From a virus (taxonomy: Duplodnaviria; Heunggongvirae; Uroviricota; Caudoviricetes), in IMG/VR virus record IMGVR_UViG_3300046474_000274, positions 36,425 to 100,424 of that record: DNA of 64,000 nt, one strand, 5' to 3'. The notes under the pieces were generated by a model. It saw only the letters and a program-made list of their open reading frames with translations. It made no database searches and was not told the origin of the DNA. The translations under genes were made by a program, and so were the position numbers. Below are positions 16,056 through 46,335 of this stretch, piece after piece (within the stretch, counting starts at the first letter, position 1; every line of letters starts with the position of its first letter).

Positions 16056-16118
16056 GCTCATCACCTACCGCACTCCGCGACGTGATGCGCTAAAACATCA
16101 TAAGTAAGTGATTACTTA
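16056..16118 (+). promoter_or_regulatory. composite element GCTCATCACCTACCGCACTCC...GCGCTAAAACATCATAAGTAAGTGATTACTTAG before the GHKL ATPase gene
   Basis: Carries both the CATCACC element and the TAAGTAAG palindrome. Confidence 0.6.
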
Positions 16119-16132
16119 GAAGAGGCAGCACA

Positions 16133-18526
16133 ATGCAGGTTTCATCGATCGCAGAACTGGACACACACGCCGTCATCGGTGGTGGAAAAGCCGAAGCTTT
16201 CGGCATGTCAGAGTCCGCAGAATTCTTCACCGTGCTTTCAGACACGCTCTATCGCGACAAGATCCGCGCGGTCGCCCGCGAAGTGATCTGCAACGCCTGG
16301 GACGCGCATATCATGGTCGGCGCAACCGACCGCCCGATCGAGATCACGCTGACTGACCAGGAGCTTATCATCCGCGACCACGGTCCCGGTATTGCGCCCG
16401 AGCGCATGCGTCCGATCTACTGCATCTACGGCGCCTCGACCAAGGTCAAGGACGAGAACCAGACGGGCGGCTTCGGTCTCGGCTCGAAGGCACCTTTCGC
16501 CTATTCCGACCACTTCTCGGTCGTCTCGGCTCATGAAGGTCTGCGCACCGTCTACGCTGTCTCGCGCGGTGGTGCAGAGACTGACGGCAAGCCCGACATG
16601 CGCGCCATGGTCCAGACGCCGACCAAGAATTCCGGCATCACCGTCTCGATCCCGATCCGCTCGCGTGATGACCGGCTCAGGTTCGAAAGCCACATCACGG
16701 CAGTCGTCAAGCAGGGCGGCATCAAGGCGCTGCTGAACGAGCAGGAGATGTTCACCTTCGATTACACCGAAGCTCGCAAGCGCGGCTATGCCCTGTGCGG
16801 CCAGAGCGCCGATTTGCGCGAGTCCCAGGTATACGTTCTCTACGGCACCGTGCTCTATCCGGTCTCCGGCACGAACTCCGACCTGGCGCACGCCGTCAAC
16901 TCGATCTCGAACTACAAGGATCACGGCGACAAGTTCATCCTGATCGCCAAGCCCAACACCGTCGGCGTGACGCCCTCCCGCGAGTCCCTCTCCTATTCTG
17001 ATCGCACTGTCGCGACGATCCTGGGGCTGATCACCAACATCAAGAAGTCGGTCGAAGGCCACGGCCGCAAGGCTGTGAAGGAGATCATCAAGGGTCGCCT
17101 GAAGGAAGCCAAGCGCTACGAAATCCGCAGCGATATCATCAACAGCGGCAGTCGGATCTCGACCCGTGGCGAAGTCGTCACCGATGCCAAGGCGCTCGCC
17201 AAGATCGCAGCGTCCGGAAACATGGACGCATTCACGACGGCGCTGCAGCGCCACAAGATCGTCATGGACGAGATGGCGAAGAAGTATCGCGACGATCGCC
17301 GCTTCTTCCGTCGCAACCGGCACACCATGTTCCGCAACCGCAGCTACTACGGTCAATACGCCGTCTCCAGCGAGCGCGACCAGTTCCTGAACGAGTCCCG
17401 GCTTGTCCGGCGCCTGATCGCCAAGTTCGATCTTTTCGGCAGCGCGTTCGTCAGCCATTGGGACGAAATCCAGGGTCGCAAGCTGATCCCGCTCGAAGAG
17501 TTCAACCACTTCGGCGCCGTCAACCAGCGCCTTATCTTCGCACCGACGCAGCGTGACGGCTTCAAGGCAGCCCGTGAATACCACGCGCTGGCGAAGGACG
17601 AGCCTGGCTACGAGCGCAAGCTGACCCTCGTCATCATCAATCGGCGCCTGTCGCCTGAAACGCTCGACAAGATCCGCGATGCTGCAAAGCACTGGAAGAT
17701 CGACATCGAGACCACGAACTTCGCCAAGCCCATCCGTCGCAAGCGGGCTGATATCGGCATCTACTACTCGCTGCGCGATGTGAAGGAAAACAAGGACGGC
17801 TACGTCCACAAGATCGATGAGATCAAGACCCTCTTAAAGGCTAACTACTACATGCCGATGCGCGGCGGGCTCGATCGCCTGGAGATGGACAAGTCTCTCT
17901 TCCAGGTGCGTGACAAGATTCTCGAACGCTATGGCGATGTTGCCTTGGCGATGTCGAGCAAGACCGAGGCGAAGCTCAAGGCTGCCGGCGCGAAGAACAT
18001 CTACGACGCACTGTTCGCCGACCTGCAGAAGGCCAACAACAGCCGCGAGGCGCAGATCGCCTCGATGATGCAGCATGACGGGTTCATCCAGAATCCGCAT
18101 TGGCACTCGCCTGGTCGCCTGATCAACGAGCTGTGCCACAAGGACATGAAGTTCGTGACCTTCTTCTTCGGCGTCAAGCCGTCGAAGGGCACGGCACTCG
18201 AAGACGCCAAGTTTCTGATGAGCGCTCTTGGCGGCAACCGCAATAGCGGTCGCGTCAGCCGTCACAATAACTCCGTCTCGCAGGAGATGGACCGGACCTA
18301 CGCTGAGGCCAAGAAGACCTTTGCGCACCTCATCCTTGACCGTGATCAGTCGGAGAAGGTCTTCGCCTGGCTCAAGCCCCTCACCGGCATGGGCGTCTCT
18401 CAGCGTGGCGACACGTCGAAGGACGATCTCATGACCATCCTGAAGTTCCTGAAGCGGACCTTCAGCGTCAAGTCTACCCCGAACAACGACAACGCAACGC
18501 TCGAAGAAGCCAAGGAGGCAGCATGA
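16133..18526 (+). CDS. Hsp90/GHKL (Bergerat-fold) ATPase family protein, 797 aa
   Basis: ORF track; N-box AREVICNAWDA (compare Hsp90 RELISNASDA); G1 IRDHGPGI; G2 TGGFGLGSKAPF; AGAGGCAGC RBS. Confidence 0.8.
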   Translation: MQVSSIAELDTHAVIGGGKAEAFGMSESAEFFTVLSDTLYRDKIRAVAREVICNAWDAHIMVGATDRPIEITLTDQELIIRDHGPGIAPERMRPIYCIYGASTKVKDENQTGGFGLGSKAPFAYSDHFSVVSAHEGLRTVYAVSRGGAETDGKPDMRAMVQTPTKNSGITVSIPIRSRDDRLRFESHITAVVKQGGIKALLNEQEMFTFDYTEARKRGYALCGQSADLRESQVYVLYGTVLYPVSGTNSDLAHAVNSISNYKDHGDKFILIAKPNTVGVTPSRESLSYSDRTVATILGLITNIKKSVEGHGRKAVKEIIKGRLKEAKRYEIRSDIINSGSRISTRGEVVTDAKALAKIAASGNMDAFTTALQRHKIVMDEMAKKYRDDRRFFRRNRHTMFRNRSYYGQYAVSSERDQFLNESRLVRRLIAKFDLFGSAFVSHWDEIQGRKLIPLEEFNHFGAVNQRLIFAPTQRDGFKAAREYHALAKDEPGYERKLTLVIINRRLSPETLDKIRDAAKHWKIDIETTNFAKPIRRKRADIGIYYSLRDVKENKDGYVHKIDEIKTLLKANYYMPMRGGLDRLEMDKSLFQVRDKILERYGDVALAMSSKTEAKLKAAGAKNIYDALFADLQKANNSREAQIASMMQHDGFIQNPHWHSPGRLINELCHKDMKFVTFFFGVKPSKGTALEDAKFLMSALGGNRNSGRVSRHNNSVSQEMDRTYAEAKKTFAHLILDRDQSEKVFAWLKPLTGMGVSQRGDTSKDDLMTILKFLKRTFSVKSTPNNDNATLEEAKEAA

Positions 18527-20067
18527 GCAAGATCCGCATCGTCGGTGCCATTGCCAGTGCAAACGGCATCACTTTCTACCTCGAAAACGGTGAAGAATTG
18601 AACCGTCCGAAGGATACCGCCCAGACGCGCCTGATCCTCGACCAGACGGTTGAAGCTCTCGCCCGTCACGAGATCGTCGAACTCGACCTGGACGACTACT
18701 CAGTCGAACGGCGCATCGAAGAACGCACGGGCGGCGCGATCCGCTTCCTGAAGACCACGGCTAAGCGCTTCAAGTCTCTCATGGGCATGGGCAACGCTTC
18801 CGACGCCGTTCTGATCGGCCGTCTGGAACGCCTGGCCGCGAAGCCTGCCCCGGCTCCCACTGCCGAGGTGGTCAAGAAGGAAGAGGAAGTCACCATCGCT
18901 GTCGTCAAGACCGCAACCGGTGAAGTCGCCATTCCGCACATCCAGCAGATCGACAAGCAGTTGGAACATGCGGCGTTCGAAAACGTCGTCGGCTTCCAGC
19001 GCTTCATGGATCGCATCGCGGCTGTTGCCTCGCAGCGCAAGCATACGGTCGATGAACTGCTCAACTTCATGAAGATGGGCGACTTGCCGATCGCGGAAGA
19101 TGGCTCGATCGTCGCCTACAAGATGCTCTACAACATGGGCGATCACTACGTCGATCCGCACACGAGGAAGGTCAAGCAGAAGCTCGGCTCGCACGTCTCG
19201 ATGCCGATCGATATCGTGGATGATAGCCGGCGCCATGAATGCTCGACGGGGCTGCACATCGCCCGTCGCGGCTATATCAAGTCGTTCAACGGCGATGCGA
19301 TCATGGTCGTAAAGGTCGCACCGGAAGACGTGATCGCGGTTCCGCACAACGAGCCGAACAAGATGCGCGCCGCTGCATATCATATCGTCGCCGAGGTGCC
19401 GAAGGAAGGTTTCGACCTGCTCAAGGCGAACCGCCCGATGACCTCGCACGAAGCGTCTTCGCGTCTCCTTGCCGATGTTATCGCCGGTCAGCATCCGAAG
19501 GTGCTCGAATACGTCCGCATCAACGGCACGATGGGCCAGGACGTGGTGATCACGCCGGCGGAAGGCACGACCTTCGAGAAGATCATGACGACCGGCAAGC
19601 TGGCGAAGGCGCTCGATGAAGGCGTCAACGTGGTCTCGCTCAAGTCGATCCGTGATCGTGCAGAGGCTGCTATCGTGGCTCAGAAGGAGGTGGAGACGCG
19701 GACTGAGGTGACGAAGCCGACGGTCGTTCAGTCCGCTGCAGCATCCGGGGATTATGGCGCCGCGATTAACGCCGCAGCGACGGCAGCGCCCACGAAGGCT
19801 GAGTCGCCGAAGGCCGCGTCTTCGCCGGCCCCGACGAAGGCAGCCAAGCCGACGCGGGCGAAGGCGGCCGAGACCGATCTGACCGACAAGAACGACGCCT
19901 ACATTGATGCGGCGCCTGCCGAGGCACCGAAGATCGACAAGAAGGCTGAAGCGCTTCGTCTGCATGGCGAAGGCAAGTCGAACCGTCAGATCGAGGCTGA
20001 GCTGCACATTTGCCGCAAGACCTTGAAGAAGTTGTTCGACAAGAACGGCCTGAAGCCCAACGGCTGA
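18523..20067 (+). CDS. hypothetical 514-aa protein with a C-terminal sigma-region-4/LuxR-like HTH and an AAASGDYGAAINAAAT linker motif
   Basis: ORF track; ATGA overlap with the GHKL gene; C-terminal GKSNRQIEAELHICRKTLKKLF. Confidence 0.7.
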   Translation: MSKIRIVGAIASANGITFYLENGEELNRPKDTAQTRLILDQTVEALARHEIVELDLDDYSVERRIEERTGGAIRFLKTTAKRFKSLMGMGNASDAVLIGRLERLAAKPAPAPTAEVVKKEEEVTIAVVKTATGEVAIPHIQQIDKQLEHAAFENVVGFQRFMDRIAAVASQRKHTVDELLNFMKMGDLPIAEDGSIVAYKMLYNMGDHYVDPHTRKVKQKLGSHVSMPIDIVDDSRRHECSTGLHIARRGYIKSFNGDAIMVVKVAPEDVIAVPHNEPNKMRAAAYHIVAEVPKEGFDLLKANRPMTSHEASSRLLADVIAGQHPKVLEYVRINGTMGQDVVITPAEGTTFEKIMTTGKLAKALDEGVNVVSLKSIRDRAEAAIVAQKEVETRTEVTKPTVVQSAAASGDYGAAINAAATAAPTKAESPKAASSPAPTKAAKPTRAKAAETDLTDKNDAYIDAAPAEAPKIDKKAEALRLHGEGKSNRQIEAELHICRKTLKKLFDKNGLKPNG

Positions 20068-20084
20068 TTCCACCTGAATAACCC

Positions 20085-20143
20085 GCGCGCAATGTGATGT
20101 CATCCGTCGCATTGCGCGCTATAAACTAAGTAAGCACTTACTT
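20085..20143 (+). promoter_or_regulatory. promoter cassette copy (10-bp hairpin GCGCGCAATG..CATTGCGCGC, then GCGCTATAAACTAAGTAAGCACTTACTTTT)
   Basis: Family member. Confidence 0.65.
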
Positions 20144-20160
20144 TTAACGGAGCATTTACT

Positions 20161-20340
20161 ATGACGGCCTGGCTCACATGCGTAATCGGCATAGTCGCCA
20201 CCCTTCTCTTGATTTTCGCCTGGCTGACGCACGTCGTCGTCTGCATCGCGACCGCCTCCTGGATGCTGCTGTTTGTCGGCGCCATCGGCTTCCCGATCGG
20301 CATCGTCCACGGCCTCATGATCTGGTTCGGCGCCATTTAA
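20161..20340 (+). CDS. small membrane protein (59 aa, two predicted TM helices)
   Basis: ATG 12 nt after the promoter palindrome; hydrophobic throughout; below the ORF-track cutoff. Confidence 0.5.
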   Translation: MTAWLTCVIGIVATLLLIFAWLTHVVVCIATASWMLLFVGAIGFPIGIVHGLMIWFGAI

Positions 20341-20349
20341 GGAATTCAC

Positions 20350-21039
20350 ATGCCCCTGATCGTTCACAAGCACACCGAAATCATGAGCCCGACGCCGGCT
20401 CCCGTCACGCGCGGCCAGTATATGCACTCCGCAAACGGCCGGAAGATCTATCCGTTCGACCCGCGTCCGGAGGAAATCAACATCGGCGTCGTCGCCCATC
20501 ACCTGGCGACCAACAATCGCTGGAATGGCGCCACGCAGCACAAGCGGTTCAGGACTCGGATCTCGTATTCGGTCGCGGAGCACTCGGTCTACTGCGCCCG
20601 CTACATTCGCGAGGTATTGCAGCGGCCGGACCTCGAACTTGAGGCGCTGCTCCACGACGGGCCGGAATACATCACCGGCGACCTGATCCGGCCGCTCAAG
20701 CATTCGCCGCAGATCCACCCGATCTATTCCCAGGTCGAGGATAAGATCGAGCAGGCGTTCGCCAAGCGTTTCGGATTGCTCTATCCGCTCCCGAAGGAAG
20801 TGAAGATGGCTGACGAAGCCGTCTGCGCCGCGGAGTCGATCCAGATCGTGCCGAAGGATCCCTGCGAAGAATGGCAGTCGGGCAAGATGCACGACGACAG
20901 CAAGGTAGCTCCTTACGAAATTCAGATGCTGGATGCCTTCCCCGCGAAGGAATTCTTCCTGATGGAATATGAAGACGCCATTCGTCGCCGGCCGAATTAC
21001 GCTGATCTCCCGTCTTCTGTTGAGCTATATTCTAAGTAA
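20350..21039 (+). CDS. HD-domain phosphohydrolase (YfbR-like 5'-deoxynucleotidase family)
   Basis: ORF track; H...HD...D pattern (VAHHLA and LLHDGPEYITGD). Confidence 0.75.
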   Translation: MPLIVHKHTEIMSPTPAPVTRGQYMHSANGRKIYPFDPRPEEINIGVVAHHLATNNRWNGATQHKRFRTRISYSVAEHSVYCARYIREVLQRPDLELEALLHDGPEYITGDLIRPLKHSPQIHPIYSQVEDKIEQAFAKRFGLLYPLPKEVKMADEAVCAAESIQIVPKDPCEEWQSGKMHDDSKVAPYEIQMLDAFPAKEFFLMEYEDAIRRRPNYADLPSSVELYSK

Positions 21040-21051
21040 TCAATTACTTAG
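21024..21051 (+). promoter_or_regulatory. promoter cassette copy (GCTATATTCTAAGTAATCAATTACTTAG)
   Basis: Family member. Confidence 0.55.
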
Positions 21052-21064
21052 CTCGGAGAAGAAC

Positions 21065-22374: not shown

Positions 22375-22937
22375 CCAATTCTCCGATTATCGCCGGTCTC
22401 GATTGGGAGACGACGGGCAAGAACGAGCCGGATCACCGCATCATCGAAGCCTATATTGGGCTCTACCGCGGCGGAACGAAGATCTGGGGCTATGAGCAGC
22501 GGATCGACCCGCAGCGCTCGATTTCCGCGGACGCGCAGCGCGTTCACAAGATCGCCGCGCCCGACCTGATCGGCTGCCCGATCTGGGACACCGTGGCTCC
22601 CACGATCAATCAGATCCTGCAGCGCGCCGACTTCATCGTCGCCCATAACGGCAACGAGTTCGACAAGCCGTTTGGCGAACGCGAGATGGAGCGGATTGGC
22701 CTGAAGCTGACCGAGAAGCCGTGGATCGACACCATGGTCGACGGCATGTGGGCGACCGCGGACGGCAAGAAGCCCCGCCTCGGTGAGCTCGCCTTCGCCT
22801 GTGGCGTCGACTACGACCCGTCGAAGGCGCACGGCGCAGCTTATGACGTGGATATTATGATGGACTGCTTCTACCGCGGTCTCGATTGGGGCTTCTTTGC
22901 CCTGCCTGAAACGGAAGGGTTAGCGCTCGCTGCATGA
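22371..22937 (+). CDS. DnaQ-like DEDDh 3'-5' exonuclease
   Basis: ORF track; Exo I GLDWETTG; Exo III HNGNEFDKPF; GTG start overlapping the upstream stop. Confidence 0.75.
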   Translation: MTNSPIIAGLDWETTGKNEPDHRIIEAYIGLYRGGTKIWGYEQRIDPQRSISADAQRVHKIAAPDLIGCPIWDTVAPTINQILQRADFIVAHNGNEFDKPFGEREMERIGLKLTEKPWIDTMVDGMWATADGKKPRLGELAFACGVDYDPSKAHGAAYDVDIMMDCFYRGLDWGFFALPETEGLALAA

Positions 22938-23016
22938 TCATCCTGCCGCATCCCAATTAGTGCTCTGCTATATCTAATTCATCAACAAACGCAGACACTT
23001 AGAAAGGAATGCAGCA

Positions 23017-23802
23017 ATGACCACTCCAGTCGCAGCCATCGCAGTCATGCCGAACGTAGCAGACCTTGAAGCCCTCGACGCTGTTCTCGCCGACTTCAAC
23101 CTCGAAGAAGGCACCAACGCCGACGATGACGTGATCCTCGACCCGACGCCGGAAGACGAAGCCGAGCTGGAAGCAGCCGAAGCTGCGCCGGCGATCGTCA
23201 GCGACGATGCGCTTGCCGACCTCGACCTGGCGCTTGCCAAGTCCGAGCTCTACGGCGAGCAGAAGTCCGCGTCCGTCACGACGACCGAACTGCCGAAGCC
23301 GACCGATGCCGTGCTCCCGAAGGGCCAGCGCGCGAAGAAGGCAGCCGGTTCGGCCGGTGCATCTGCCGCCCGCACGCCGCGCGATATCTCCAAGGTCGCC
23401 AACGAATTCTTCGTCCTCGCCGGTGATGTGTCGGCGATGTCGGAAGACGACCTCAAGGCCGCCCGTGACGCCACGATGAAGCTCGTGCCCAACCAGGTGA
23501 AGGTCGCCGAGAAGTTCGAAAACCTCTTCACGGCGCTCAGCGTCGGAAAGGCGCCGTCCACCTACGTCATGATCGCCTTCAAGCTGCTCGACGGCAAGGG
23601 CTCGATGACCTCCTCCGATGTCGTCGGCGCTTACAAGGCGTCCGGTCTCGGCGAAGGCACCGCTCGCTCGCAGTCGGGCCAGATCATGAACCTCTTTGCG
23701 ACTGTCAAGATTGCCGATCGGGCAGGACAGACGCTCACCCTGCGCTCGGACAGCTTGCTGGCCGAACGCCTGCGCAGCCTGCCGGCTCCTGCCGCAAGCT
23801 AG
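23017..23802 (+). CDS. acidic hypothetical protein
   Basis: ORF track; AAAGGAA RBS. Confidence 0.6.
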   Translation: MTTPVAAIAVMPNVADLEALDAVLADFNLEEGTNADDDVILDPTPEDEAELEAAEAAPAIVSDDALADLDLALAKSELYGEQKSASVTTTELPKPTDAVLPKGQRAKKAAGSAGASAARTPRDISKVANEFFVLAGDVSAMSEDDLKAARDATMKLVPNQVKVAEKFENLFTALSVGKAPSTYVMIAFKLLDGKGSMTSSDVVGAYKASGLGEGTARSQSGQIMNLFATVKIADRAGQTLTLRSDSLLAERLRSLPAPAAS

Positions 23803-23822
23803 CCCCGGCTTGCTCCGCAGAA

Positions 23823-23860
23823 GCGGCCGACGAGTCCCACCTGTTGTTCTCGTCGGCCGC
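23823..23860 (+). terminator. 12-bp hairpin GCGGCCGACGAG..CTCGTCGGCCGC after the gene ending at 23802
   Basis: No T-run. Confidence 0.35.
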
Positions 23861-23888
23861 TCACCACCTCATGCATCCCAAAATCGAT

Positions 23889-23919
23889 AGCGCTATAAGC
23901 TAAGTAAGAGATTACTTAG
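23889..23919 (+). promoter_or_regulatory. promoter cassette copy (AGCGCTATAAGCTAAGTAAGAGATTACTTAG)
   Basis: Family member. Confidence 0.65.
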
Positions 23920-23933
23920 CGGAGGAGAATTAC

Positions 23934-24215: not shown

Positions 24216-24225
24216 GGAAACGTCC

Positions 24226-25370: not shown

Positions 25371-26800
25371 GCAACATCACCGGCAAGACGCTTGTTTCCT
25401 GGGGTCTGCAGCCTGGCGCCTGGTTTAAGGAGGCTCTGCCGATCGCCCGCGAAATGCGCGCCACTGGCAAGAGCGACAAGGAGATCATCCAGGCCCTGTT
25501 CCCGATGCAGGCAGCCAAGGCGATCGATGAAGGCGTGCCGCTGCGCACTAACAACATTCCATTCGGCCAGTTCATCGAGCCGGAAGGTGACGACGAGAAG
25601 GCGAATGTCGCCTCGGTTCTCGCTCATATGGACGCGCTGATGCGTGTTCCGACGATCGAGAAGGGTGCAGTCATGCCGGATGCGTGCCCTTCCGGCTCGG
25701 CGCTCGGCACCATCCCTGTCGGTGGTGTGGTCGCGACCAAGAACGCGATCCATCCGGGCTTCCACTCCGCGGACATCTGCTGCTCGATGGCGATCTCCGT
25801 CTTCAAGCGCGACACGCCTGTAGATTACGTCCTCGACATTGCGATGAAGGCGTCTCACTTCGGCGTCGGCAAGCGCACGGCATCGGAAGCGCGCCAGTAT
25901 AAGGATCTGGTGCAGTTGGTGGGCGGCTTCGATGCGAACCCCTTCCTGAAGGGCCTCGAGGATTACGCCATTCACCACTTCATGACGCAGGGCGACGGCA
26001 ATCACTTCTTCTATGTCGGGCAGCTCGAAAGCACCGGGCAGATGGCGATCGTCACGCACCACGGCTCGCGCGGTCTGGGCGGCCAGCTCTACAAGCGCGG
26101 CAAGGCAGCAGCCGAGCGTCACACGCGCATCGTCGCAGGGCGGATCCCGCTGCACAACGCATGGATCGAGGCAGATAGCCAGGTCGGCCAGGATTACTGG
26201 CAGGCGCTGCAGGCAATCCGCCTGTGGACGAAGATGAACCACTTCGCGATCCACAACATCGTCGCCAAGCGCCTCGGCAATCAGATCATCGGGCAGTTCT
26301 GGAACGAACACAACTTCGTCTTCCAGCGCTCCGACGGGCTGTTCTATCACGCCAAGGGCGCAACGCCGTCGTTCAAGGGCTTTGCGAAGGACGACCAGGG
26401 TCTGACGCTGATCCCGATGAACATGGCGCAGCCGATCCTGATCGCCGAGCACGCCGAGAATGAAGATGCCCTTGGCTTTGCACCGCACGGCGCCGGCCGC
26501 AATCTCTCCCGCACCGGGCACATCAAGCGGCTGATGGCAGAGTTCGGCGACACGCGCGGTCTGGGGCCGAATGCGATCAAGGCGATCATGGAGCGCGAGA
26601 CCAAGGGCCTCGATGTCCGCTTTTACACCGGCGACCCTGACGTTTCCGAGCTGCCGAGCGCCTACAAGAACGCGGACCAGGTCCAGGCTCAGATCGAGAA
26701 GTTCGGTCTCGCCAAGATCGCCGATCGCATTCTGCCGCGTGGCTCGATCATGGCCGGCGAAATGAAGTGGCACAAGCCCAAGAAGCCGAAGGCCGAATAA
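25367..26800 (+). CDS. rtcB: RtcB RNA 3'-phosphate/2',3'-cyclic-phosphate ligase
   Basis: ORF track; RtcB motifs GDGNHFFYVG, HHGSRGLG, NHNFV and APHGAGR; GGAG RBS. Confidence 0.9.
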   Translation: MSNITGKTLVSWGLQPGAWFKEALPIAREMRATGKSDKEIIQALFPMQAAKAIDEGVPLRTNNIPFGQFIEPEGDDEKANVASVLAHMDALMRVPTIEKGAVMPDACPSGSALGTIPVGGVVATKNAIHPGFHSADICCSMAISVFKRDTPVDYVLDIAMKASHFGVGKRTASEARQYKDLVQLVGGFDANPFLKGLEDYAIHHFMTQGDGNHFFYVGQLESTGQMAIVTHHGSRGLGGQLYKRGKAAAERHTRIVAGRIPLHNAWIEADSQVGQDYWQALQAIRLWTKMNHFAIHNIVAKRLGNQIIGQFWNEHNFVFQRSDGLFYHAKGATPSFKGFAKDDQGLTLIPMNMAQPILIAEHAENEDALGFAPHGAGRNLSRTGHIKRLMAEFGDTRGLGPNAIKAIMERETKGLDVRFYTGDPDVSELPSAYKNADQVQAQIEKFGLAKIADRILPRGSIMAGEMKWHKPKKPKAE

Positions 26801-26867
26801 CCCCTCCCGCATCCCAAAAACAACTGCGCGATACTCAATCTATCGACGCAACTGAAAGGACATGCAG

Positions 26868-28478
26868 ATGACTGCTGTTTCCGGCGTGAGTGCTCACGCC
26901 CATGACTATGACGACTTCCTGCCGTTCGCAGAAGCCGTGCGCAAGCGTTACACGGCATCGGTCGCCGGTGGTGCTCCGCTCTTCACGACCGACGCCGGCG
27001 ACCTCTGGGAGCGCTATCTCGAGGGCTTTGACGACCCGGATGAGCGCCAGCAGCACAACTGCAATTGCTGCAAGAACTTCATTCGCCATTACGGCGGCCT
27101 CGTCACCATCGACGACAAGGGTATTCAGCACTCAGCGCTCTGGGATGAGGCGCTTGTTCCGGTGTCCTTCGAGAAGGCCGCCCTTGGTCTTCGGAAGGCG
27201 GCTGTAAGGGCAACCGTCAATGGCGTCTTTCTGTCGTCCGAAACGACCTGGGGTAATGCCAAGACCGGGCTCTGGAATCACTTCTCGCTGACCCAGAGCA
27301 GCGAACGTGTCCACCGCGACCGCGTGAACACCGCGTTCCAGGTGATGGCGCAGAAGAAGCAGGACTTCGGCACGCTGAAGCATGGCCTCGCCGACTACTC
27401 CCGCGACGTTGTCGCCTCTGCAGTCAACCTGCTGGAGTCTGAAACGCTGTTTCGCTCCGAGAAGGTGATTGCGCCGGCGAAGTTCCTGCTCGCGATCCAC
27501 GACGCCTACCAGGGCAAGTTCAAGCATCGCCATGACAACCTGATCTGGAAGGCAGTCGCAACGGCCCCGGTCGGCTTCTGCACGCCGCGTTCGTCCATGA
27601 TCGGCACGCTCCTCGATGACCTGAAGGAAGGCATGAGCGTGGAGCTGGTCAAGAGCCGCTTCAAGACGAAGATGGATCCGCTGCAGTATCAGCGGCCGCA
27701 GTCAGCGCCGTCGGCAGGCAATATCGCCGTCGCCGAGAAGCTGGTCGAAAAGCTGGGCATTCAGAACTCCCTCAAGCGTCGTTTCGCCCGCCTCGACGAG
27801 GTCGAGACCATCTGGAAGCCTGCGGCACCTGCTAGTGCGCCGGCAGCGGGCGGTGTCTTCGGTCATCTGACGCCGAAGGGCGCAGCGTTCTCGATGCAGG
27901 CCGCACCCGTCGCACCGGTTAAGAACATCACCTGGGAGAAGTTCTTCCGGACGGTTGTTCCGAAGGCTCTGTCGATGGAAATGCAGATGCGTTCGGTGAG
28001 TGCCGCCTTCGTGGCGCTGGTAACGGCCGAGGATCCCGATGCCCCGCCGATCCTGCAGTGGGATAAGGAAGACAAGCGCAATCCGTTCTCCTGGTATCTC
28101 TACAGCGGTGGCTCGATGCCCGGTAATTGGAACCTGCCGTCGTCAGGCTGGATCAAGGTCAACGGCATCAGTCTGAAGCCGTCTGCCTGGCACCGCGATC
28201 CGGACGCTGAAGACAATCAGGGCAAGGGCGCTCTCTTCATCCTCGACGGCTGCCGTGACCTGCGCACGCCCGGCCTGTGCCTCTTCCCGGAGATCCTCAA
28301 GTCGAGCCTTCACGAGGTTCGCAAGACGATCGAGGCGTTCTCCCATCGCGGAACTTTGTCCGGTCAGAACGAGGCGTCCGCTTGCGGCGTCCTTTGTGGC
28401 CAGGTGGGTCTGAACTATGGCGTTCGCGTGACGACTGACCTCGGTCGCGCCGACTACCTCGTCGATCGTTGGGATTGA
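26868..28478 (+). CDS. hypothetical 537-aa protein, no recognised motifs
   Basis: ORF track 26862..28478; second ATG has better RBS spacing. Confidence 0.7.
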   Translation: MTAVSGVSAHAHDYDDFLPFAEAVRKRYTASVAGGAPLFTTDAGDLWERYLEGFDDPDERQQHNCNCCKNFIRHYGGLVTIDDKGIQHSALWDEALVPVSFEKAALGLRKAAVRATVNGVFLSSETTWGNAKTGLWNHFSLTQSSERVHRDRVNTAFQVMAQKKQDFGTLKHGLADYSRDVVASAVNLLESETLFRSEKVIAPAKFLLAIHDAYQGKFKHRHDNLIWKAVATAPVGFCTPRSSMIGTLLDDLKEGMSVELVKSRFKTKMDPLQYQRPQSAPSAGNIAVAEKLVEKLGIQNSLKRRFARLDEVETIWKPAAPASAPAAGGVFGHLTPKGAAFSMQAAPVAPVKNITWEKFFRTVVPKALSMEMQMRSVSAAFVALVTAEDPDAPPILQWDKEDKRNPFSWYLYSGGSMPGNWNLPSSGWIKVNGISLKPSAWHRDPDAEDNQGKGALFILDGCRDLRTPGLCLFPEILKSSLHEVRKTIEAFSHRGTLSGQNEASACGVLCGQVGLNYGVRVTTDLGRADYLVDRWD

Positions 28479-28483
28479 TCCCC

Positions 28484-28556
28484 TACATGGGAGCGCTCAT
28501 CACCTGGGCGCTCCCAATCTCGTTTGCGCTATAAGATAAGTAAGCAATTACTTTAG
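28484..28556 (+). promoter_or_regulatory. hairpin GGGAGCGC-tcatcacctg-GGCGCTCCC followed by GCGCTATAAGATAAGTAAGCAATTACTTTAG
   Basis: Family member. Confidence 0.65.
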
Positions 28557-31246: not shown

Positions 31247-31278
31247 GCCGCTCACTCCCTCCCGCGCTCCGTCGCGTT

Positions 31279-31305
31279 CAGCGATATAAGTAACTCATTA
31301 CTTAG
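31279..31305 (+). promoter_or_regulatory. promoter cassette copy (CAGCGATATAAGTAACTCATTACTTAG)
   Basis: Family member. Confidence 0.55.
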
Positions 31306-33929: not shown

Positions 33930-34244
33930 TGGTTCCTGTTACGTTCTATAGGAGTAAATTCCTATATGCTAGCCGATCATGTCAACCGGATTCTTTGCCG
34001 CGATGTCGTGATTGGTAAAAATTGCCTGCCGCAAGCCAAGCAGCGCTGAGATATATATAGACTTGTCATAAATCAAGAGATTTGCATGTAGCTAGCTAGC
34101 TATATAGCCATTGACTTGAGGTATAAATCAACTTTGAGTAAATATGCGCGGACCGACGGAATCATAAGAAAGTCAGACAGTTGGGCGCACATCCCGGTCA
34201 CCCATGCATACAATGCAGTCATTCTACTAGAAAGGGAAACATCA

Positions 34245-35704: not shown

Positions 35705-35962
35705 ATGGCAATGAACGTGACCAATCGACAGCGGCTGGAATTTGCAGCCGCTGGGTTCCTCGCCGAGATGCGCAAGCAATGGGCCAAGCTCCACCCCGAG
35801 GATCCCTGCCCCATTAAGAACCTCGCCGACTATCCCGAGAAGGAGCGGTCGGCGCTGATGGCTGGTGTCCAGAAGGCCGTGCAATACGCCGGCCCCGACA
35901 CCGACAACGCCTTCGCGGCCTGGATCGCGAAGCGGGAAGAAGTCAGTCCGCACACGACCTGA
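35705..35962 (+). CDS. hypothetical protein
   Basis: ORF track 35702..35962. Confidence 0.5.
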   Translation: MAMNVTNRQRLEFAAAGFLAEMRKQWAKLHPEDPCPIKNLADYPEKERSALMAGVQKAVQYAGPDTDNAFAAWIAKREEVSPHTT

Positions 35963-35980
35963 TGCGCTCCCAATGTCGTT

Positions 35981-36011
35981 TGCGCTATAAAGTAAGTAAG
36001 CAATTACTTAG
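35981..36011 (+). promoter_or_regulatory. promoter cassette copy (GCGCTATAAAGTAAGTAAGCAATTACTTAG)
   Basis: Family member. Confidence 0.65.
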
Positions 36012-37599: not shown

Positions 37600-37668
37600 T
37601 GAGCTGCGCTCGTTACCGAGCGCACTCCTACACGTTTTGCGCTATAAGCTAAGTAAGAGCTTACTTAT
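37600..37668 (+). promoter_or_regulatory. hairpin TGCGCTCG..CGAGCGCA followed by GCGCTATAAGCTAAGTAAGAGCTTACTTAT
   Basis: Family member. Confidence 0.65.
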
Positions 37669-38194: not shown

Positions 38195-38195
38195 A

Positions 38196-38444: not shown

Positions 38445-38495
38445 TCAGCGCATTAGAATGCGAATATAAGCAACGTCTACACGAGGAAAGCTCCG

Positions 38496-39586: not shown

Positions 39587-39616
39587 TGGGAAGTGCTGCT
39601 CAGCAGCAGCCCCCTT

Positions 39617-39658
39617 GTCATCACCTACCGCGTTCCAACGCTGTTTTCGCTACAAATG
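39617..39658 (+). promoter_or_regulatory. GTCATCACCTACCGCGTTCCAACGC...GCTACAAATG element upstream of the gene at 39697
   Basis: Second motif family. Confidence 0.5.
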
Positions 39659-39696
39659 AATTGCAAGCGATGCAAATAGCAGAGGAGTGAGCGCTG

Positions 39697-40113
39697 ATGG
39701 TGAACGTGCCGAATGCCAAGCGCGTCATCGCGTCAATTAGAGGGCTTTTGCCCGAGACGCAGAACCTGGGCTTCAACATGGGCGGCTATGTCTACCCGAC
39801 GAGCGAAGCCCTGCCTGATCATAGCGGTCACAATCTCGAATGGGTCGCATGCGTCTGCGGCCACGCCTACATCCTCGAGACCGGGTGTTCCTTCCAGCAG
39901 GCTAAGGACGAGGAACCCGATGAGATCGAGGAAATCGCCCAGCTCTATCTGGGGCTAAGCCATGAGCAGGCAAATGCCCTGTTTTTCGATCTGCCCGATC
40001 ACCTGACGCTCGCCTGGATCCCGCTCGACCATGTGGTCGCAGTGCTGGAACGGCTGATCGCGACTGGCGAGGTCAACTGGATCCTGGAGGAAGCCCATGC
40101 CGAAGCTGCATGA
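39697..40113 (+). CDS. hypothetical protein
   Basis: ORF track; GGAGTGAG RBS. Confidence 0.55.
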   Translation: MVNVPNAKRVIASIRGLLPETQNLGFNMGGYVYPTSEALPDHSGHNLEWVACVCGHAYILETGCSFQQAKDEEPDEIEEIAQLYLGLSHEQANALFFDLPDHLTLAWIPLDHVVAVLERLIATGEVNWILEEAHAEAA

Positions 40114-41503: not shown

Positions 41504-41546
41504 GAGGTAGTTATCGATGGTTAGATGCGCCGCCCGCGACTCCCAT

Positions 41547-41592
41547 GGCTAACGGAAGCGACGACTCCAGCCGCTTCCGTTAACCTTTCATT
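41547..41592. terminator. bidirectional terminator (AACGGAAGCG..CGCTTCCGTT then TTTCATT) between convergent genes
   Basis: 10-bp stem. Confidence 0.6.
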
Positions 41593-41614
41593 AAGCCTAA
41601 ATTTCAATGGTTTA

Positions 41615-41902
41615 TTAACGCGGCAACTGCCCCAGGATCCACTTGTTTCCCTCGCGGTTTCCGCAGCTCCGACACCGCAGCCGGGGTGCGAGCGAACTTA
41701 GGTAGGTCTGCTTGCCCCATTTCTGCGACAGCTCCCAGCGGAGGAGCCACCCTTCCCGCTCGCACTTCGAGCAGTGCCCGCCGAGGGCGTGCCATTCCGG
41801 GATGTCGTCAAGGGTCGTGTGCGCCGGATCCATTACTGGACCCAGGTAGACGATCTCGTCGCGCCGTGGGCGGCCGAGCTGTATACCGCGGCGATGTTTC
41901 AT
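41615..41902 (-). CDS. Zn-ribbon protein (CxxC-x30-CxxC) on the minus strand between a bidirectional terminator and a bidirectional promoter palindrome; candidate transcription factor
   Basis: ORF track 41615..41929; ATG 41902 follows AGGAA. Confidence 0.5.
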   Translation of the reverse strand: MKHRRGIQLGRPRRDEIVYLGPVMDPAHTTLDDIPEWHALGGHCSKCEREGWLLRWELSQKWGKQTYLSSLAPRLRCRSCGNREGNKWILGQLPR

Positions 41903-41957
41903 GTTCCTAATTTGTTCATGCGACCCCAAAGAGTCAATGGTGCTTTGCTTCGGGGCG

Positions 41958-41981
41958 GAATAAGTAAGTGTTTACTTACCT
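41958..41981. promoter_or_regulatory. palindrome-only copy GGAATAAGTAAGTGTTTACTTACC lying between divergent genes (minus-strand Zn-ribbon gene and +strand tail fibre gene)
   Basis: Symmetric core, so it may act in both directions. Confidence 0.5.
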
Positions 41982-42028
41982 CACCTGGGCCAGTAAAATC
42001 AGGCTCTCTGGAACCGGACACCACACCC

Positions 42029-43876
42029 ATGAAGATCTTCGCCAAGGGCACCATGCTCGGCAATCCGCTGCTGTCGAGCGAAGTCGTAATTCCCGTCTAC
42101 CTCGCCCCGACGATGCCTCCCTCTTATACCCAGCGGTCGGGCGCGGACGAGAAGTGGGGCTTCCTGGATTCCATGGTGACCGAGGCCGGCGCCGCGGTGA
42201 ATTCGACCATTGGCCGCGTCCTGGTGACCAACGCACCCTCGCCCAACGCGCTCTACATCATGACCGGCGAGACGAACGGCCTCGCGATCGTGCCTGACAC
42301 CGGCATGATCTACGTGACGAACGGCTCGCTGCTGACGGTCGGTATTCGCACCATCACCGTCACCGCGGTCAATCTCGCCGGCTTCGCCAGCACGACCATC
42401 CGCATTGCGGTCGTGGGCACGGCGACCAACGTCATCTACATCGACCCGACGGCCGGCGATGACAGCAACACCGGCATCAAGCCCTCGCAGGCGATCAAGA
42501 CCTGGGCGGCCCGCACGTCCAAGGGCTCGGGCACGAAGACCTACGCCGTTCGCCGCGGCACCGCGCTCGATGCTGCCATGGTTCTCGCCAACAATGAAAC
42601 CGTCCGCTGCTATGGCGACCCTGCCCTGCCCGCACCGAAGATCAGCACCACGTCCGCTTTTGGGCTCACCGGCACCGATCTAGCCGGCGCAACCGTCCAG
42701 GACATCGAAATCTCGGCCGGCCAGCGCGCCGTTCACATCAACCGCGGCACGAATTTCAAGGCTTTCCGCTGCGTGTTCCGCGTCCCGACCGACGGCACCA
42801 ACCGCGCCCCCTTCTACACGACCCAGGTCACGGGTCTGAGGTTCAGGCACAATTGGGTGCCGGCGAGCTCCTATGGTGACAATGTGTATTGCCGCGGCCT
42901 GAAGAACGCCGAGCTCGCCTATAATCTACTGGAAACGCCGCTGGGCAGCACCTCGGACAATATGCAGATCACCTCGGAGCGCAACGTCCTCTACCCGTGC
43001 GCCGATGTCTGGATCCATCACAACACGATGGTCAACGTGGGCGGCACGTCCGCCAAGGGCAACTGCGTCATCGAGGGCTGCCTGCGGGCGCTGGTCGAAA
43101 ACAACGATTTCAGCGGTCTCTATTTCTGCGTATCCTCAGTGTCGACTTTCAACACCATCCGCAACAACCGGATGAGCAAGGCGACCTACAGCTCCAACTC
43201 CTTCACCATGGGCATCGGCTCGACCTACGACACTGGCGACCAGTCTTGGTATGATAATCGCCTGTCTGGGCCGGGCAACCGCGCCTTCTCGATCTCCGGC
43301 ACCGGCGAGGCTGCTGGTGCTCCGCTGTGGTCGCGCTACGACCTTGAGATTAACGACAACATCGGCGAAGGGCACACGACCTTCTTCCACCAGAACCGCC
43401 TGATGTCCGGCTACTTCCAGTATAACGTCGGACAGAGCAACGTCTCCAATACGGTCTCGGGTGTGGCGACGGTTGCGACGGGTGGCGATTACACGACCCG
43501 CACGGTCACGCCGAACTTCCTTAACACCGCAGATGGGCCGATCTGCATGGAACGGGCCAGGATCTCAGGGACGGTCCAGAATGGGCAGACCGTGACGGTC
43601 AGCGCGCCCTCCTTCACCGGCGCCGTGTCGGTTGAATATCAGTGGCGCCTGAACGGCAAGTATATCGCCGGCGAGACGGGCCAGAGCTTCACGATCCCGG
43701 CAGGCTACAGCGGCCAGGTCTCCGATCGGGTGCCGACCTTTGCCACGACCGGCTTTCCTGGTGGAGCTGCCGGCGAGCTGTCGTGCATCACCCGTGGCAT
43801 CGATGCAGCGGGCAATGTGATGATCGCCCCTGCCCTGTTTGCCAACGACGAAGCCTATATGCCGATCGCTGCATAA
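42029..43876 (+). CDS. tail fibre / tailspike-like protein with right-handed beta-helix (pectin-lyase-like) repeats
   Basis: In frame with ORF 41774..43876; repeated hydrophobic-N-N/G beta-helix signatures (IHHNTMVNVGG, NNDFSG). Confidence 0.7.
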   Translation: MKIFAKGTMLGNPLLSSEVVIPVYLAPTMPPSYTQRSGADEKWGFLDSMVTEAGAAVNSTIGRVLVTNAPSPNALYIMTGETNGLAIVPDTGMIYVTNGSLLTVGIRTITVTAVNLAGFASTTIRIAVVGTATNVIYIDPTAGDDSNTGIKPSQAIKTWAARTSKGSGTKTYAVRRGTALDAAMVLANNETVRCYGDPALPAPKISTTSAFGLTGTDLAGATVQDIEISAGQRAVHINRGTNFKAFRCVFRVPTDGTNRAPFYTTQVTGLRFRHNWVPASSYGDNVYCRGLKNAELAYNLLETPLGSTSDNMQITSERNVLYPCADVWIHHNTMVNVGGTSAKGNCVIEGCLRALVENNDFSGLYFCVSSVSTFNTIRNNRMSKATYSSNSFTMGIGSTYDTGDQSWYDNRLSGPGNRAFSISGTGEAAGAPLWSRYDLEINDNIGEGHTTFFHQNRLMSGYFQYNVGQSNVSNTVSGVATVATGGDYTTRTVTPNFLNTADGPICMERARISGTVQNGQTVTVSAPSFTGAVSVEYQWRLNGKYIAGETGQSFTIPAGYSGQVSDRVPTFATTGFPGGAAGELSCITRGIDAAGNVMIAPALFANDEAYMPIAA

Positions 43877-43882
43877 GCCGCT

Positions 43883-43920
43883 CGCATCCTGCCGCACTCC
43901 AACGCGAATACAGCTAAAAC
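43883..43920 (+). promoter_or_regulatory. CATCCTGCCGCACTCCAACGCG...GCTAAAAC element, copy 1 of two in the 520-nt ORF-free region
   Basis: Second motif family. Confidence 0.5.
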
Positions 43921-44327
43921 TTAATCATCAAGAGCGAAGCAACGAAAGACGCGAGCGACACGATGACATGGGTTTTGCTTTGAGGGTGGCTACCTCGACC
44001 ACAAATAGCCCGGCCTGGATGAAGCCGTTATCCCACATACGGTAGGCGTGCCGTTATAGGAGATGGGCAGAGCAAATAGAGCCCTACCTCCCGGACGCTG
44101 ATTCCGATCCGTCGCCCCGCCGTCACGGTTAGCCTGGGTGAAAACAACTCAACCCCTATGCCTCGAATGGTCCGGCTACCGGCCGCAGTCGTTGTCAGGG
44201 GATCTGCTTGAGTGCTCACGATCCTCTCCTAGATCCGTATCCCGCCTTCCTGAAGGGTGATGACGGTGCGGAGAGAGATCAATGAACTCTCGGCATAGCT
44301 CCATAGCTATCTAGCTGCAAAGCTACC

Positions 44328-44383
44328 GCTCATAACCTACCGCGCCCCGAGAGCTCGGTTGCTAAAACTGAACGCAGCAATGA
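44328..44383 (+). promoter_or_regulatory. CATAACCTACCGCGCCCC...GCTAAAAC element immediately upstream of the AAA ATPase gene
   Basis: Second motif family. Confidence 0.55.
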
Positions 44384-44402
44384 CAACAAGGAAAGGTCAA
44401 GC

Positions 44403-46193
44403 ATGTCCACCACCAAGGAACGCGGTCTCGAGGTTCTCGAAGAGCTCCGCAAGGACAAGATCGAGGTCATCGTGGAGAACGATGAATTTCGCCACTTCAA
44501 GCTGAATGGCGTCGAATTCATCGAATTCCTGGAGAGCGGCTACGCCTATACCAACTGGATCGAGGCGATCTCTGCCACGCTCGGCCATCACGCGCTCAGC
44601 GATCGGAACGTCTATTCCGTTTCGTTCCTCGCCAACAATATGAAGAAGCTGGTCGAGCGCATCAGGCGGGTGCAGCGGGCTTTCGATAGCAACGCCCTCT
44701 TCAAGGAATCCCGCGCGGTTCTCGAAGTCGTTAAGGCAGCGGCCGCCCGCGTCGAAGAAGATCGCCGCACGCGTTTCGATGCCGGCTTGACGACCTTCGA
44801 CGACCTGCCGTTCCTCTTCGCCGAAGACGAGCGTATCACCTGGGAAAACAGCGACGAAATCCAGGTCGGCGGGTATTTCAAGAGCGCCGAATCCAAGCGG
44901 AGCTGGGGCGGCTCCTACATGCTCTTCCAGATCGAGGTGATCGCGAAGGTCGGCGTGTCCGTCACCCGCGCTCAGGTCGCTGCGACCGTTCCCGAGTTCA
45001 GCGGCACCATGGAAGTTGCCAAGCTGCCGATCGTCAAGCTGGTCGCGGGCTCGAAGGTCGAACGTGAATTGGTCGACCGCGGTCAGATTTTCGCATCGAT
45101 TGCTTCCGGCACTGCCTATGTCGAATACACCGGAATGCTGATCAAGCCGTCTTACTGGTCCGACGCCGTGCTTCGTGCCGACGGCCGCGTCATGATTGAC
45201 CCGGAATCGATGGGCCGTATCGACAACAAGGTCTACGACCAGGCCAAGCGCCGCATCATGTCGAAGAAGGGCTACAACGAGGACGATGATGTCGAGGTGA
45301 AGATCGAGACGGTCGAGGAGAAGGATCTCTTCGCCTGCTCGCCTTATGTCCTCGGCTTCTCGTTCCGTGCGAAGACCTGGGGCATGATGTTGGTCTCCGG
45401 CATCAAGCCGATCGATTGGGCGAAGGACGCTTTCGAGCGCCTGGTCCTCGAGCCCAAGACGAAGAAGCGCGTCCGCGCCCTCGTGCAGAACTCCAGCGGA
45501 TCGTTCTCCGACATCATCGGTGGCAAGGGCGGTGGTTGCGTCTTCCTGCTGCACGGCGAACCCGGTCAGGGCAAGACGCTGACGGCTGAAACCGTCGCTG
45601 AAGACCTGCGCCGGCCGCTCTACTCGATCTCCGTCGGCGAGCTCGGCACCGATCCGGACCAGCTCGAGGAACGCCTGCGCGAAATCCTCGACCTGGCGAC
45701 CATCTGGAATGCGGTCCTGCTGCTCGATGAAGCGGACATCTTCCTCGAAGCCCGCGATGAGAAGGACGTGCTCCGCAACGCCATGGTTGGCGTGTTCCTG
45801 CGTCTGCTCGAATATCACCAGGGCGTTCTGTTCCTGACCACGAACCGCGTTCGCAACATCGATCGCGCCTTCTATAGCCGTATCTCCGTCGCGATCGCCT
45901 TCACCAAGGCCGATATCGACAAGCGGGTGAAGGTCTGGACCAACCTGCTGAAGGCTGCCGGCCTCGCCATCAATGCGAGCGACATCACCGAACTGGCCGA
46001 CTCCGATCTCAACGGGCGTCAGATCAAGAACGTGATCCGCACGGCCGCAACCCTGGCCAAGCTCGACGGCGAGGCTGTCACGACCGATCGTCTGAAGGAA
46101 GAGATCGAGGAAGCGACCCGCTTCGAGCGCGAAATGCTCCAGGCACCTGACTACCTTGAAAAGCCCAAGCCGACGCTGGTCCGCGCGGCCTAA
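44403..46193 (+). CDS. AAA+ ATPase with a long N-terminal domain
   Basis: ORF track; Walker A GEPGQGKT; Walker B LLLDEAD; sensor/arginine region TTNRVRNIDRAFYSR. Confidence 0.85.
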   Translation: MSTTKERGLEVLEELRKDKIEVIVENDEFRHFKLNGVEFIEFLESGYAYTNWIEAISATLGHHALSDRNVYSVSFLANNMKKLVERIRRVQRAFDSNALFKESRAVLEVVKAAAARVEEDRRTRFDAGLTTFDDLPFLFAEDERITWENSDEIQVGGYFKSAESKRSWGGSYMLFQIEVIAKVGVSVTRAQVAATVPEFSGTMEVAKLPIVKLVAGSKVERELVDRGQIFASIASGTAYVEYTGMLIKPSYWSDAVLRADGRVMIDPESMGRIDNKVYDQAKRRIMSKKGYNEDDDVEVKIETVEEKDLFACSPYVLGFSFRAKTWGMMLVSGIKPIDWAKDAFERLVLEPKTKKRVRALVQNSSGSFSDIIGGKGGGCVFLLHGEPGQGKTLTAETVAEDLRRPLYSISVGELGTDPDQLEERLREILDLATIWNAVLLLDEADIFLEARDEKDVLRNAMVGVFLRLLEYHQGVLFLTTNRVRNIDRAFYSRISVAIAFTKADIDKRVKVWTNLLKAAGLAINASDITELADSDLNGRQIKNVIRTAATLAKLDGEAVTTDRLKEEIEEATRFEREMLQAPDYLEKPKPTLVRAA

Positions 46194-46275
46194 GCCTCAC
46201 GCAATGATCTGGAGAGGGCGCTTTCGAGCGCCCTTTTCGATGCGCCCCACCTGCCCGCGGATCCCTTTCGAACCC

Positions 46276-46335
46276 GCTCATCACCTGCCGCTCTCCAAGC
46301 GTGCGCTTGCTAAAACTAATCATCAGCAACGCACA
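46276..46335 (+). promoter_or_regulatory. GCTCATCACCTGCCGCTCTCCAAGCG...GCTAAAAC element upstream of the gene at 46351
   Basis: Second motif family. Confidence 0.55.

Follow-up and report, generated by a model that had tools for sequence, protein, structure and literature searches.

The window analysed here, a stretch of 64,000 nucleotides from the IMG/VR virus record IMGVR_UViG_3300046474_000274, carries a recurring upstream element that is best read as one lineage-specific promoter family, which would drive most of the early and DNA-metabolism operons of a phage-plasmid. Twenty sites, all on the plus strand between 2.4 and 46.3 kb, share the common form CCGCTCAtcACCTnnCGCnCTCCnA-N10(+/-1)-GCGCTAtAAg, and judged from their sequence and arrangement these roughly 20 sites are very probably promoters. 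Promoters of this kind, phage-specific and with the -35 region replaced, are known; what is new, for a little-studied lineage, is the consensus with its length and its reader. By means of the motif, about half of the genome can be mapped into operons.

Identification of the Promoter Family

A preliminary description of the window had reported an element recurring in front of several genes. Its consensus CATCACCTRCCGCNCTCCAA, searched with at most three mismatches, gave five matches on the plus strand (14553, 16059, 39619, 44331, and 46279) and none in 100 shuffles, and GCTAAAAC was found six times in the window against 0.69 expected. Anchoring on the -10-like box, followed by alignment, resulted in the set of 20 sites. 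With a position weight matrix built from them, the leave-one-out score exceeded the shuffle maximum (17.9, the best of 50 shuffles) in 14 of the 20, and a two-block score above 20 was reached by 19 matches on the plus strand and by none on the minus strand. In 18 of the 20 sites the -10-like box lies 39-51 nt upstream of a start codon with a Shine-Dalgarno sequence, and the CTCC near -30 is conserved as strongly as the -10 box in all sites. The recurring element is therefore real; the similarity survives a statistically controlled motif search, and alignment of the copies gives one common form.

The copies first noticed at 16056, 39617, 43883, 44328, 46276, 22936, 23858, 26799, and 28484 are all real sites. 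The copy at 4562 retains the CTCC block and the -10 box and lacks the far-upstream part, while the one at 53950 (CCCATCACCTCCCGC) has to be dropped, having no CTCCAA and no -10 box in register. About 70 nt downstream of it, a weak promoter-like site is seen at 54019-54060, consisting of CTCCA-N11-GCTAAAC (54027-54046) followed by AATCATCGA. The suggestion of a promoter or activator-binding site was of the right kind, as evidenced by the strand specificity, the fixed distance from start codons, the alphaproteobacterial -10 box, and the conserved orthologous positions.

Promoter Architecture

In 19 of the 20 sites the -10 box reads GCTAAAAC, GCTATAAG, or a close variant. Both are interchangeable variants of one box; the promoter of the rIIA-like gene uses GCTAAAAC in the window and GCTATAAA in Rhizobium phage B1VFA (position 475). 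The housekeeping consensus of Caulobacter crescentus sigma73 is TTGaCg / GCtANAWC (PMC13004042), and that of Sinorhizobium meliloti sigma70 is CTTGAC-N17-CTATAT (PMC2873474). Our sites resemble these alphaproteobacterial housekeeping promoters in the -10 8-mer, with GCTAAAAC fitting GCtANAWC at eight and GCTATAAG at seven of eight positions and the S. meliloti CTATAT being contained, but differ from them in showing no -35 hexamer at 16-18 bp; nCGCn stands there instead, followed by an invariant CTCC at about -30. Indeed, the aligned columns from -36 to -31 read n-c-G-C-n-C. Counted from the -10 box, CTCC occupies about -30 to -27, CGC -34 to -32, ACCT -40 to -37, and CCGCTCA -49 to -43, the parts CTCC, ACCT, and CCGCTCA being spaced about one helical turn apart.

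Canonical host promoters were considered and rejected: a regular-expression scan of the window and B1VFA for TTGAC-N15-18-[CT]TAnA[AT] gave no site, and E. coli-type promoter matches (6 against 5.2 expected) were not enriched. As these scans gave nothing beyond chance, the roughly 20 sites are the sole recognisable promoters of the early genes, including those for the rIIA/rIIB-like proteins, ribonucleotide reductase, NAD salvage, and RtcB. The same -10 8-mer was also seen in intergenic DNA of unrelated alphaproteobacterial phage or prophage loci, once with a TTGACT -35-like hexamer before it.

Other known promoter types did not match the aligned sites. Where a T4-type MotA box, (a/t)(a/t)(a/t)TGCTTtA, would be centred at -30, the sites read CGCnCTCCnA at -34 to -25. 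Neither block of an extracytoplasmic function (ECF) sigma promoter (a GGAAC-type -35 and a short CGT-type -10, spaced 16-17 bp) is found in them, and in place of the sigma54 pattern GG-N10-GC (-24/-12) the aligned consensus has CC upstream, 12 nt before GC. A T7-like promoter does not fit either: the large open reading frames (ORFs) of the window hold no RNA polymerase domain, none is annotated in B1VFA, and the motif falls into two parts around a variable 10-nt spacer, unlike the contiguous consensus of about 20 bp ending at +1 that single-subunit polymerases use. The conserved 5-7 bp hairpin of N4-type promoters is absent at the 40 sites compared, where the mean best stem was 3.5 bp, against 3.40 in shuffles and 3.69 in random genomic 31-mers. 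Stems around CTCC at 14583, 3413, and 28484 had raised the idea of a hairpin promoter or terminator, which was rejected on the same figures. The hairpin described earlier at 28484 is real but peculiar to that copy.

Conservation and Range of the Motif

The window is a rhizobial phage-plasmid. At the nucleotide level it shares about 78% identity with Rhizobium phage B1VFA (122 kb); further relatives are V1VFA-S, RHph_X66, and pRlX6, a plasmid of R. beringeri. Relatives of the B1VFA type are siphophages carrying repC, parA, and parB and have been published as a genome announcement (PMC12509600). In a scan of the whole B1VFA genome, 20 sites exceeded the shuffle maximum, all of them on the plus strand, at 0.4-31 kb and 85-122 kb, and no motif site was found in the structural-gene region at 31-85 kb. 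A late class, which had been offered as one possibility for the element, is therefore unlikely.

Comparison of 16 orthologous pairs between the window and B1VFA revealed an identity of 75-100% in the upstream block and 81-100% in the -10 core, against values of 31-81% for the 10-nt spacer and 37-75% for the flank upstream. The upstream block is under purifying selection. The motif is also present in other members of the clade from IMG/VR, and phages of the RHEph10 type display a diverged form, CCTnCCGCnnTCC-N-GCGATAAC. Among the 72,556 plasmids of PLSDB, the consensus 46-mer matched only the phage-plasmids pRlX6 and pLM21S1, with no sign of the element on Rhizobium megaplasmids, and the motif thus appears to be confined to the phage-plasmid lineage. 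The AAA ATPase was tried as a lineage marker and discarded, because relatives sharing only that protein (L007-L042) are without the motif; a pattern match in another contig (L048) was a chance match.

This lineage (B1VFA, V1VFA-S, RHph_X66, pRlX6, pLM21S1, and RHEph10) is known mainly through genome announcements and comparative genomics surveys, and the accounts of both types that we examined contain no promoter analysis.

A Downstream Palindrome and a Palindrome-Less Subclass

A second repeated element, the palindrome (T)AAGTAAG-N2-4-CTTACTT(A), i.e., TAAGTAAG...CTTACTTA, occurs in about 43 copies in B1VFA and in 17 copies in the window, at 3429, 7786, 8904, 11937, 16101, 20127, 21033, 23901, 28537, 31287, 35993, 37650, 41961, 47675, 57885, 61310, and 63192. 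The upstream element had been assigned to a different gene subset, separate from an early cassette marked by this palindrome. Neither part of that assignment holds, as 12 of the 20 sites (3413, 7777, 11928, 14583, 16089, 20118, 21024, 23892, 28528, 31283, 35984, and 37641) carry both elements, and the TAAGTAAG cassettes share the upstream element and the -10 box. All such cassettes located upstream of genes at 2-38 kb contain the core CTCCnA-N10-GCTATAAG, and many of them the full upstream block (3413, 14583, 16089, 23892, 28528, 31283, and 35984). Upstream-block scores did not differ between sites with the palindrome (19.6, n = 12) and without it (19.8, n = 8; p = 0.79).

About half of the palindrome copies lie directly 3' of the -10 box, over the predicted start site. 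The others, about 20, have no promoter, are found among other places in most intergenic regions of the structural genes, and usually stand 5-25 nt before a start codon, abutting the Shine-Dalgarno sequence. The palindrome hence forms a control layer of its own on top of the promoter family and is either an operator or a hairpin of the 5'-untranslated region. At the corresponding places of RHEph10 the palindromes look different (AGTCA...TGACT type). On the minus strand, a promoter-like cassette of the palindrome type at 61289-61345 (GCGCTCCC..GCTATAAGTAAGTAAGcacTTACTTAG, then a Shine-Dalgarno sequence and ATG), which has a shorter spacer and was missed by the matrix, serves the minus-strand gene 60726-61289.

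The idea of a second promoter class does not hold for the upstream element, yet it survives in another form. Sites with a TAAAAC -10 box were without palindrome in eight of nine cases, against 10 of 31 for other -10 variants (p = 0.0055), a value that pools the window and B1VFA, whose orthologous pairs are not independent, with p = 0.11 for the window alone. Many TAAAAC sites then carry an (A)ATCATCA/G start region (AATCATCA) where the palindrome would sit. On this sequence evidence, there is a genuine palindrome-less subclass, marked by the TAAAAC -10 and the AATCATCA start region and not by the upstream element, which in the window comprises 4575, 22967, 26830, 43913, 44361, and 46309 and, more loosely, 2465 and 39649. 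Palindrome-less promoters should escape the control exerted by the palindrome, and their kinetics could well be different; the prediction is thus of two regulatory subclasses, set by the downstream palindrome.

Recognition of the Upstream Block

The architecture poses a biochemical question, namely what takes over the -35 contact, which bears on the way in which a temperate phage-plasmid of nitrogen-fixing bacteria takes over the transcription of its host. We tentatively favour, with not quite even confidence, a division of labour in which the host primary sigma (RpoD), within the RNA polymerase holoenzyme, would read the -10 box, and a phage-encoded specificity factor would dock on the upstream block. 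The asymmetric block from about -49 to -25 would then stand in for the -35 contact, working like T4 MotA boxes, pho boxes, or DriD sites, and the TAAGTAAG...CTTACTTA palindrome over the predicted start would add a second layer of control at most promoters. We prefer this division of labour because the -10 box is of the housekeeping type, because no other promoter is recognisable for the first transcripts, and because the block hardly changes between lineages in which the identity of the sigmas is just 34%. Several points weigh against it. No activator candidate emerged, helix-turn-helix (HTH) domains being found in B1VFA only in an HTH_3 protein and in a probable small terminase; an ECF-like sigma that ends in an HTH-like C-terminal segment is encoded by the lineage itself and could read the block; and, should a phage factor be required, -35-independent basal activity would have to suffice for the genes expressed first in an infection.

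That sigma leads to a less probable but serious alternative, in which the ECF-like factor of the phage (an ortholog of B1VFA_132 and RHEph10 gp045, encoded outside the window) would read both promoter halves on the host core enzyme, its region 4 contacting CGCnCTCC and its region 2 GCTATAAG, so that the motif would mark a sigma-dependent delayed-early or middle regulon. In every complete motif-carrying relative, a sigma-70 family gene is found in synteny with CobT, CobS-like, and DNA polymerase III alpha genes (CobT, CobS-like, sigma, DNA polymerase III alpha). B1VFA_132 matches Sigma70_r2 (E = 4e-7) and, weakly and below the curated cut-off, the sigma70-ECF model TIGR02937; its conserved C-terminal segment resembles the HTH of region 4, making the two-domain architecture complete. 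In B1VFA and RHEph10 the gene belongs to a conserved operon that follows a Cro/CI-type HTH gene beside repC, and core-type sites precede this sigma operon itself, as expected of an autoregulated ECF sigma. A peptide-pattern search recovered the sigma in the close clade only; the RHEph10 annotation reveals that it is conserved there too. The lineage-specific motif co-occurs with the sigma, and the missing activator candidate also speaks for this alternative. ECF sigmas typically use a short -10 of the CGT type, however, and the box seen here is a housekeeping-type extended -10. Moreover, the upstream block is nearly unchanged between lineages in which the sigmas share only 34% identity, the very first transcripts have no other visible promoter type, and the structural genes, the usual targets of phage sigmas, are without the motif.

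Two simpler explanations appear much weaker. The host holoenzyme might act alone on a -35-independent extended -10, with the block serving another purpose, such as shielding against read-through or providing a site for a repressor or nucleoid protein. The perfect -10 consensus and the working-looking sites with the core only (2465, 4575, and 11928) are in line with this, but in all sites CTCC near -30 matches the -10 in its degree of conservation, the block is under purifying selection, and the element was not seen on Rhizobium megaplasmids, so that we regard it as unlikely. It is still more improbable that the far-upstream part (CCGCTCATCA...) is an RNA-level signal on incoming transcripts (boxA-like antitermination or processing) which merely abuts the promoter. 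In several copies it does follow immediately on a stop codon (TAAgCCGCTCA at 31283, 43913, and B1VFA 16117), and it shows a loose likeness to boxA, CGCTCTT(T)A. Against this stand the lack of a conserved hairpin (mean best stem 3.5 against 3.4 bp in shuffles), the fixed register of the part with the -10 box, and its presence behind a tRNA gene (16056) and at the start of a non-coding RNA unit.

Comparison with Known Systems

T4 middle promoters combine a MotA box at -30 with a sigma70 -10, the sigma being appropriated by MotA and AsiA. Our sites share with them a host-type -10 of good quality, the lack of a -35, and an asymmetric, phage-specific element centred near -30, and they likewise serve early or middle genes, including rIIA/rIIB homologs. 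They differ in that the sequence is unrelated to the MotA box and the element is much longer (about 25 bp, reaching to -49). Neither motA nor asiA is annotated in B1VFA or RHEph10, although most of their genes are hypothetical and no dedicated search was run.

Phage-plasmid P1 has dispersed C1 operators on its early promoters, and its late promoters consist of a -10 and an upstream element read by Lpa. The lineage studied here is likewise a phage-plasmid in which one operator-like palindrome recurs at many promoters and something else stands in for the -35; the sequences are unrelated, however, and the palindrome also occurs about 20 times without a promoter, usually abutting the Shine-Dalgarno sequence, so that it may act at the RNA level. 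In DriD-regulated promoters of Caulobacter and in pho boxes, the distance from a conserved upstream site to a recognisable -10 is likewise fixed (PMC13004042), but our sequence is different and lineage-specific.

A Conserved Structured RNA

The preliminary description counted two copies ahead of the AAA ATPase gene. The copy at 44328 does serve the ATPase; the one at 43883, with no conserved ORF behind it, precedes a conserved structured non-coding RNA instead. The core of this RNA, about 318 nt (43976-44293, plus strand; a class of about 310 nt), is located between the promoters at 43878 and 44326. Over the roughly 320 nt between the 43883 copy and the promoter that follows, conservation exceeds that of the flanking coding DNA, and there are indels that are not multiples of three. 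Homologs of the RNA block were found in 17 viral contigs of about 28-120 kb, most of them above 100 kb; the match in one contig (L064) was probably due to chance, which leaves about 16 IMG/VR contigs. BLAST located the RNA in RHph_X66, V1VFA-S, B1VFA, RHph_Y2_11, RHph_Y2_17_1, and RHEph10, unannotated in five of the six, and in distant relatives the same promoter architecture stands in front of it.

The fold derived from a 12-sequence alignment comprises eight helices and 49 pairs; compensatory changes are seen in 14 of these pairs, and 94.8% of the alignment cells are paired. The covariation score was 0.238, against 0.113 in shuffles (none of 500 reached it) and 0.04-0.09 with slid partners. 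The loop of the first hairpin (GGCUA) may also form a pseudoknot with a UAGCC further downstream, a possibility backed by one covarying pair. Searches against Rfam 15 (4227 covariance models) gave nothing at the gathering score, with chance-level matches of E >= 0.25 in the window region, and no match for four divergent homologs. From this comparative evidence, the 43883 promoter copy is predicted to drive a conserved, previously undescribed structured RNA, a separate lead in that it is a large covarying RNA common to rhizobial phages. A role as the leader of one fixed gene was considered and is probably not correct, since the neighbours upstream and downstream differ among relatives.

Taken as a whole, the picture would be that of a phage factor redirecting the host RNA polymerase to -35-less promoters across a clade of Rhizobium/Sinorhizobium phage-plasmids of about 100-120 kb, an alphaproteobacterial counterpart of sigma appropriation, with one member of the promoter family expressing a new structured RNA class of about 310 nt that is more conserved than any neighbouring protein; in this full form we consider it doubtful.

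Just 5' of the RNA, a short ORF (MTW...) recurs in many homologs. Arrays of TAGCT every 8 bp (TAGCT-N3-TAGCT), matched 16 times against 0.01 expected, occur at 34089, 44296-44316, 51950-51978, 56024-56045, 59023, 59316, and 61361-61381; they sit at the ends of transcription units, e.g., directly after the RNA and directly after a gene of 1205 amino acids.

Individual Sites and Gene Content

Nearly all genes from 1 to about 53 kb of the window are on the plus strand. Their products include RecA, a metallophosphoesterase, an SbcC-like nuclease, ribonucleotide reductase, rIIA-like and rIIB-like proteins, a dNMP phosphatase, an exonuclease, RtcB, NAD-salvage enzymes, an AAA ATPase, and a ligase. 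The gene at 16133-18526, first taken for a GHKL ATPase, is rIIA-like (PHROG E = 7e-128), and the following gene at 18523-20067 is rIIB-like (E = 1e-106), annotated in B1VFA as 'N4 gp34-like'.

The first putative promoter, at 2431-2472, has the core only (CCCGT-N9-GCTATAAG), lacks the palindrome, and serves the ORF 2508-3053, with an ortholog at B1VFA 109053. It is followed at 3378-3420 by a site with a full upstream block (block scores 27.7/17.4) and the palindrome at 3429-3446, in front of the metallophosphoesterase gene (3460-4554), and at 4540-4582 by one with a weak block (CTCCGC-N10-GCTAAAAC) and no palindrome, ahead of the ORF 4619-4954. The site at 7742-7784 (GCGCTCCCT-N10-GCTATAAC, then palindrome) serves the ORF 7807-8289; that at 11894-11935, again core-only, stands between a terminator-like hairpin and a palindrome and serves the ORF 11969-12997. 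Full blocks are found at 14548-14590 (CATAACCTGATGCGCTCCAA; scores 29.2/17.4), followed by a degenerate palindrome, and at 16054-16096, where the -10 GCTAAAAC and the palindrome at 16101-16118 precede the rIIA-like and rIIB-like genes.

Further downstream, palindromes follow the sites at 20083-20125 (TCCGT-N10-GCTATAAA) and 20988-21031 (weak, CTCCCG..GCTATATT), as well as the full-block site at 23857-23899 (scores 25.2/16.0). Between them, the site at 22932-22974 (CATCCTGCCGCATCCCAA-N..-GCTATATC) has the start region TAATTCATCAAC and no palindrome and serves the ORF 23017-23802. The site at 26793-26837, also without palindrome, reveals a degenerate -10 (GATACTCA) but is kept at B1VFA 11666; it serves the ORF 26862-28478. 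At 28493-28535, a full-block site in its local hairpin (GGGAGCGC...GCGCTCCC), followed by the palindrome, heads an operon from 28567 to the NadM-like and NAMPT genes. Three more sites with a palindrome behind them are located at 31248-31290 (full block, -10 GATATAAG, scores 24.4/15.4), 35948-35991 (full block), and 37606-37648.

The last four sites are all without palindrome. Full blocks are displayed at 39614-39656 (-10 GCTACAAA, scores 22.5/14.8), serving the ORF 39697-40113; at 43878-43920 (-10 GCTAAAAC, start region TTAATCATCAAG, scores 30.1/11.7), heading the non-coding RNA and no protein gene; and at 44326-44368 (-10 GCTAAAAC, scores 28.4/11.7), ahead of the AAA ATPase gene (44403-46193). 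The site at 46274-46316 (-10 GCTAAAAC, start region TAATCATCAGCAAC, scores 30.8/13.7) is the best fit to the originally proposed consensus, with no mismatch; it serves the ORF 46351-46830 and probably also the plus-strand genes up to about 53.4 kb.

Other Elements

The tRNA at 15267-15340 is confirmed by Rfam, and ARAGORN gives a reading with a 4-base anticodon loop (tcag); it may be a frameshift-suppressor-like tRNA or a pseudo-tRNA. An inverted repeat, ATTCCCGTCC...GGACGGGAAT, surrounds an AT-rich stretch at 54300-54390 of the window and recurs in B1VFA at 54258-54340 and about 84170. In B1VFA the copies lie on either side of the block of structural genes, which makes the repeat a candidate for late control. 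Finally, the non-coding region at 53380-53900, with repeated CATAGAGA-like units and several TTGACA/CTTGAC motifs, may represent an origin, iterons, or a terminal-repeat region.

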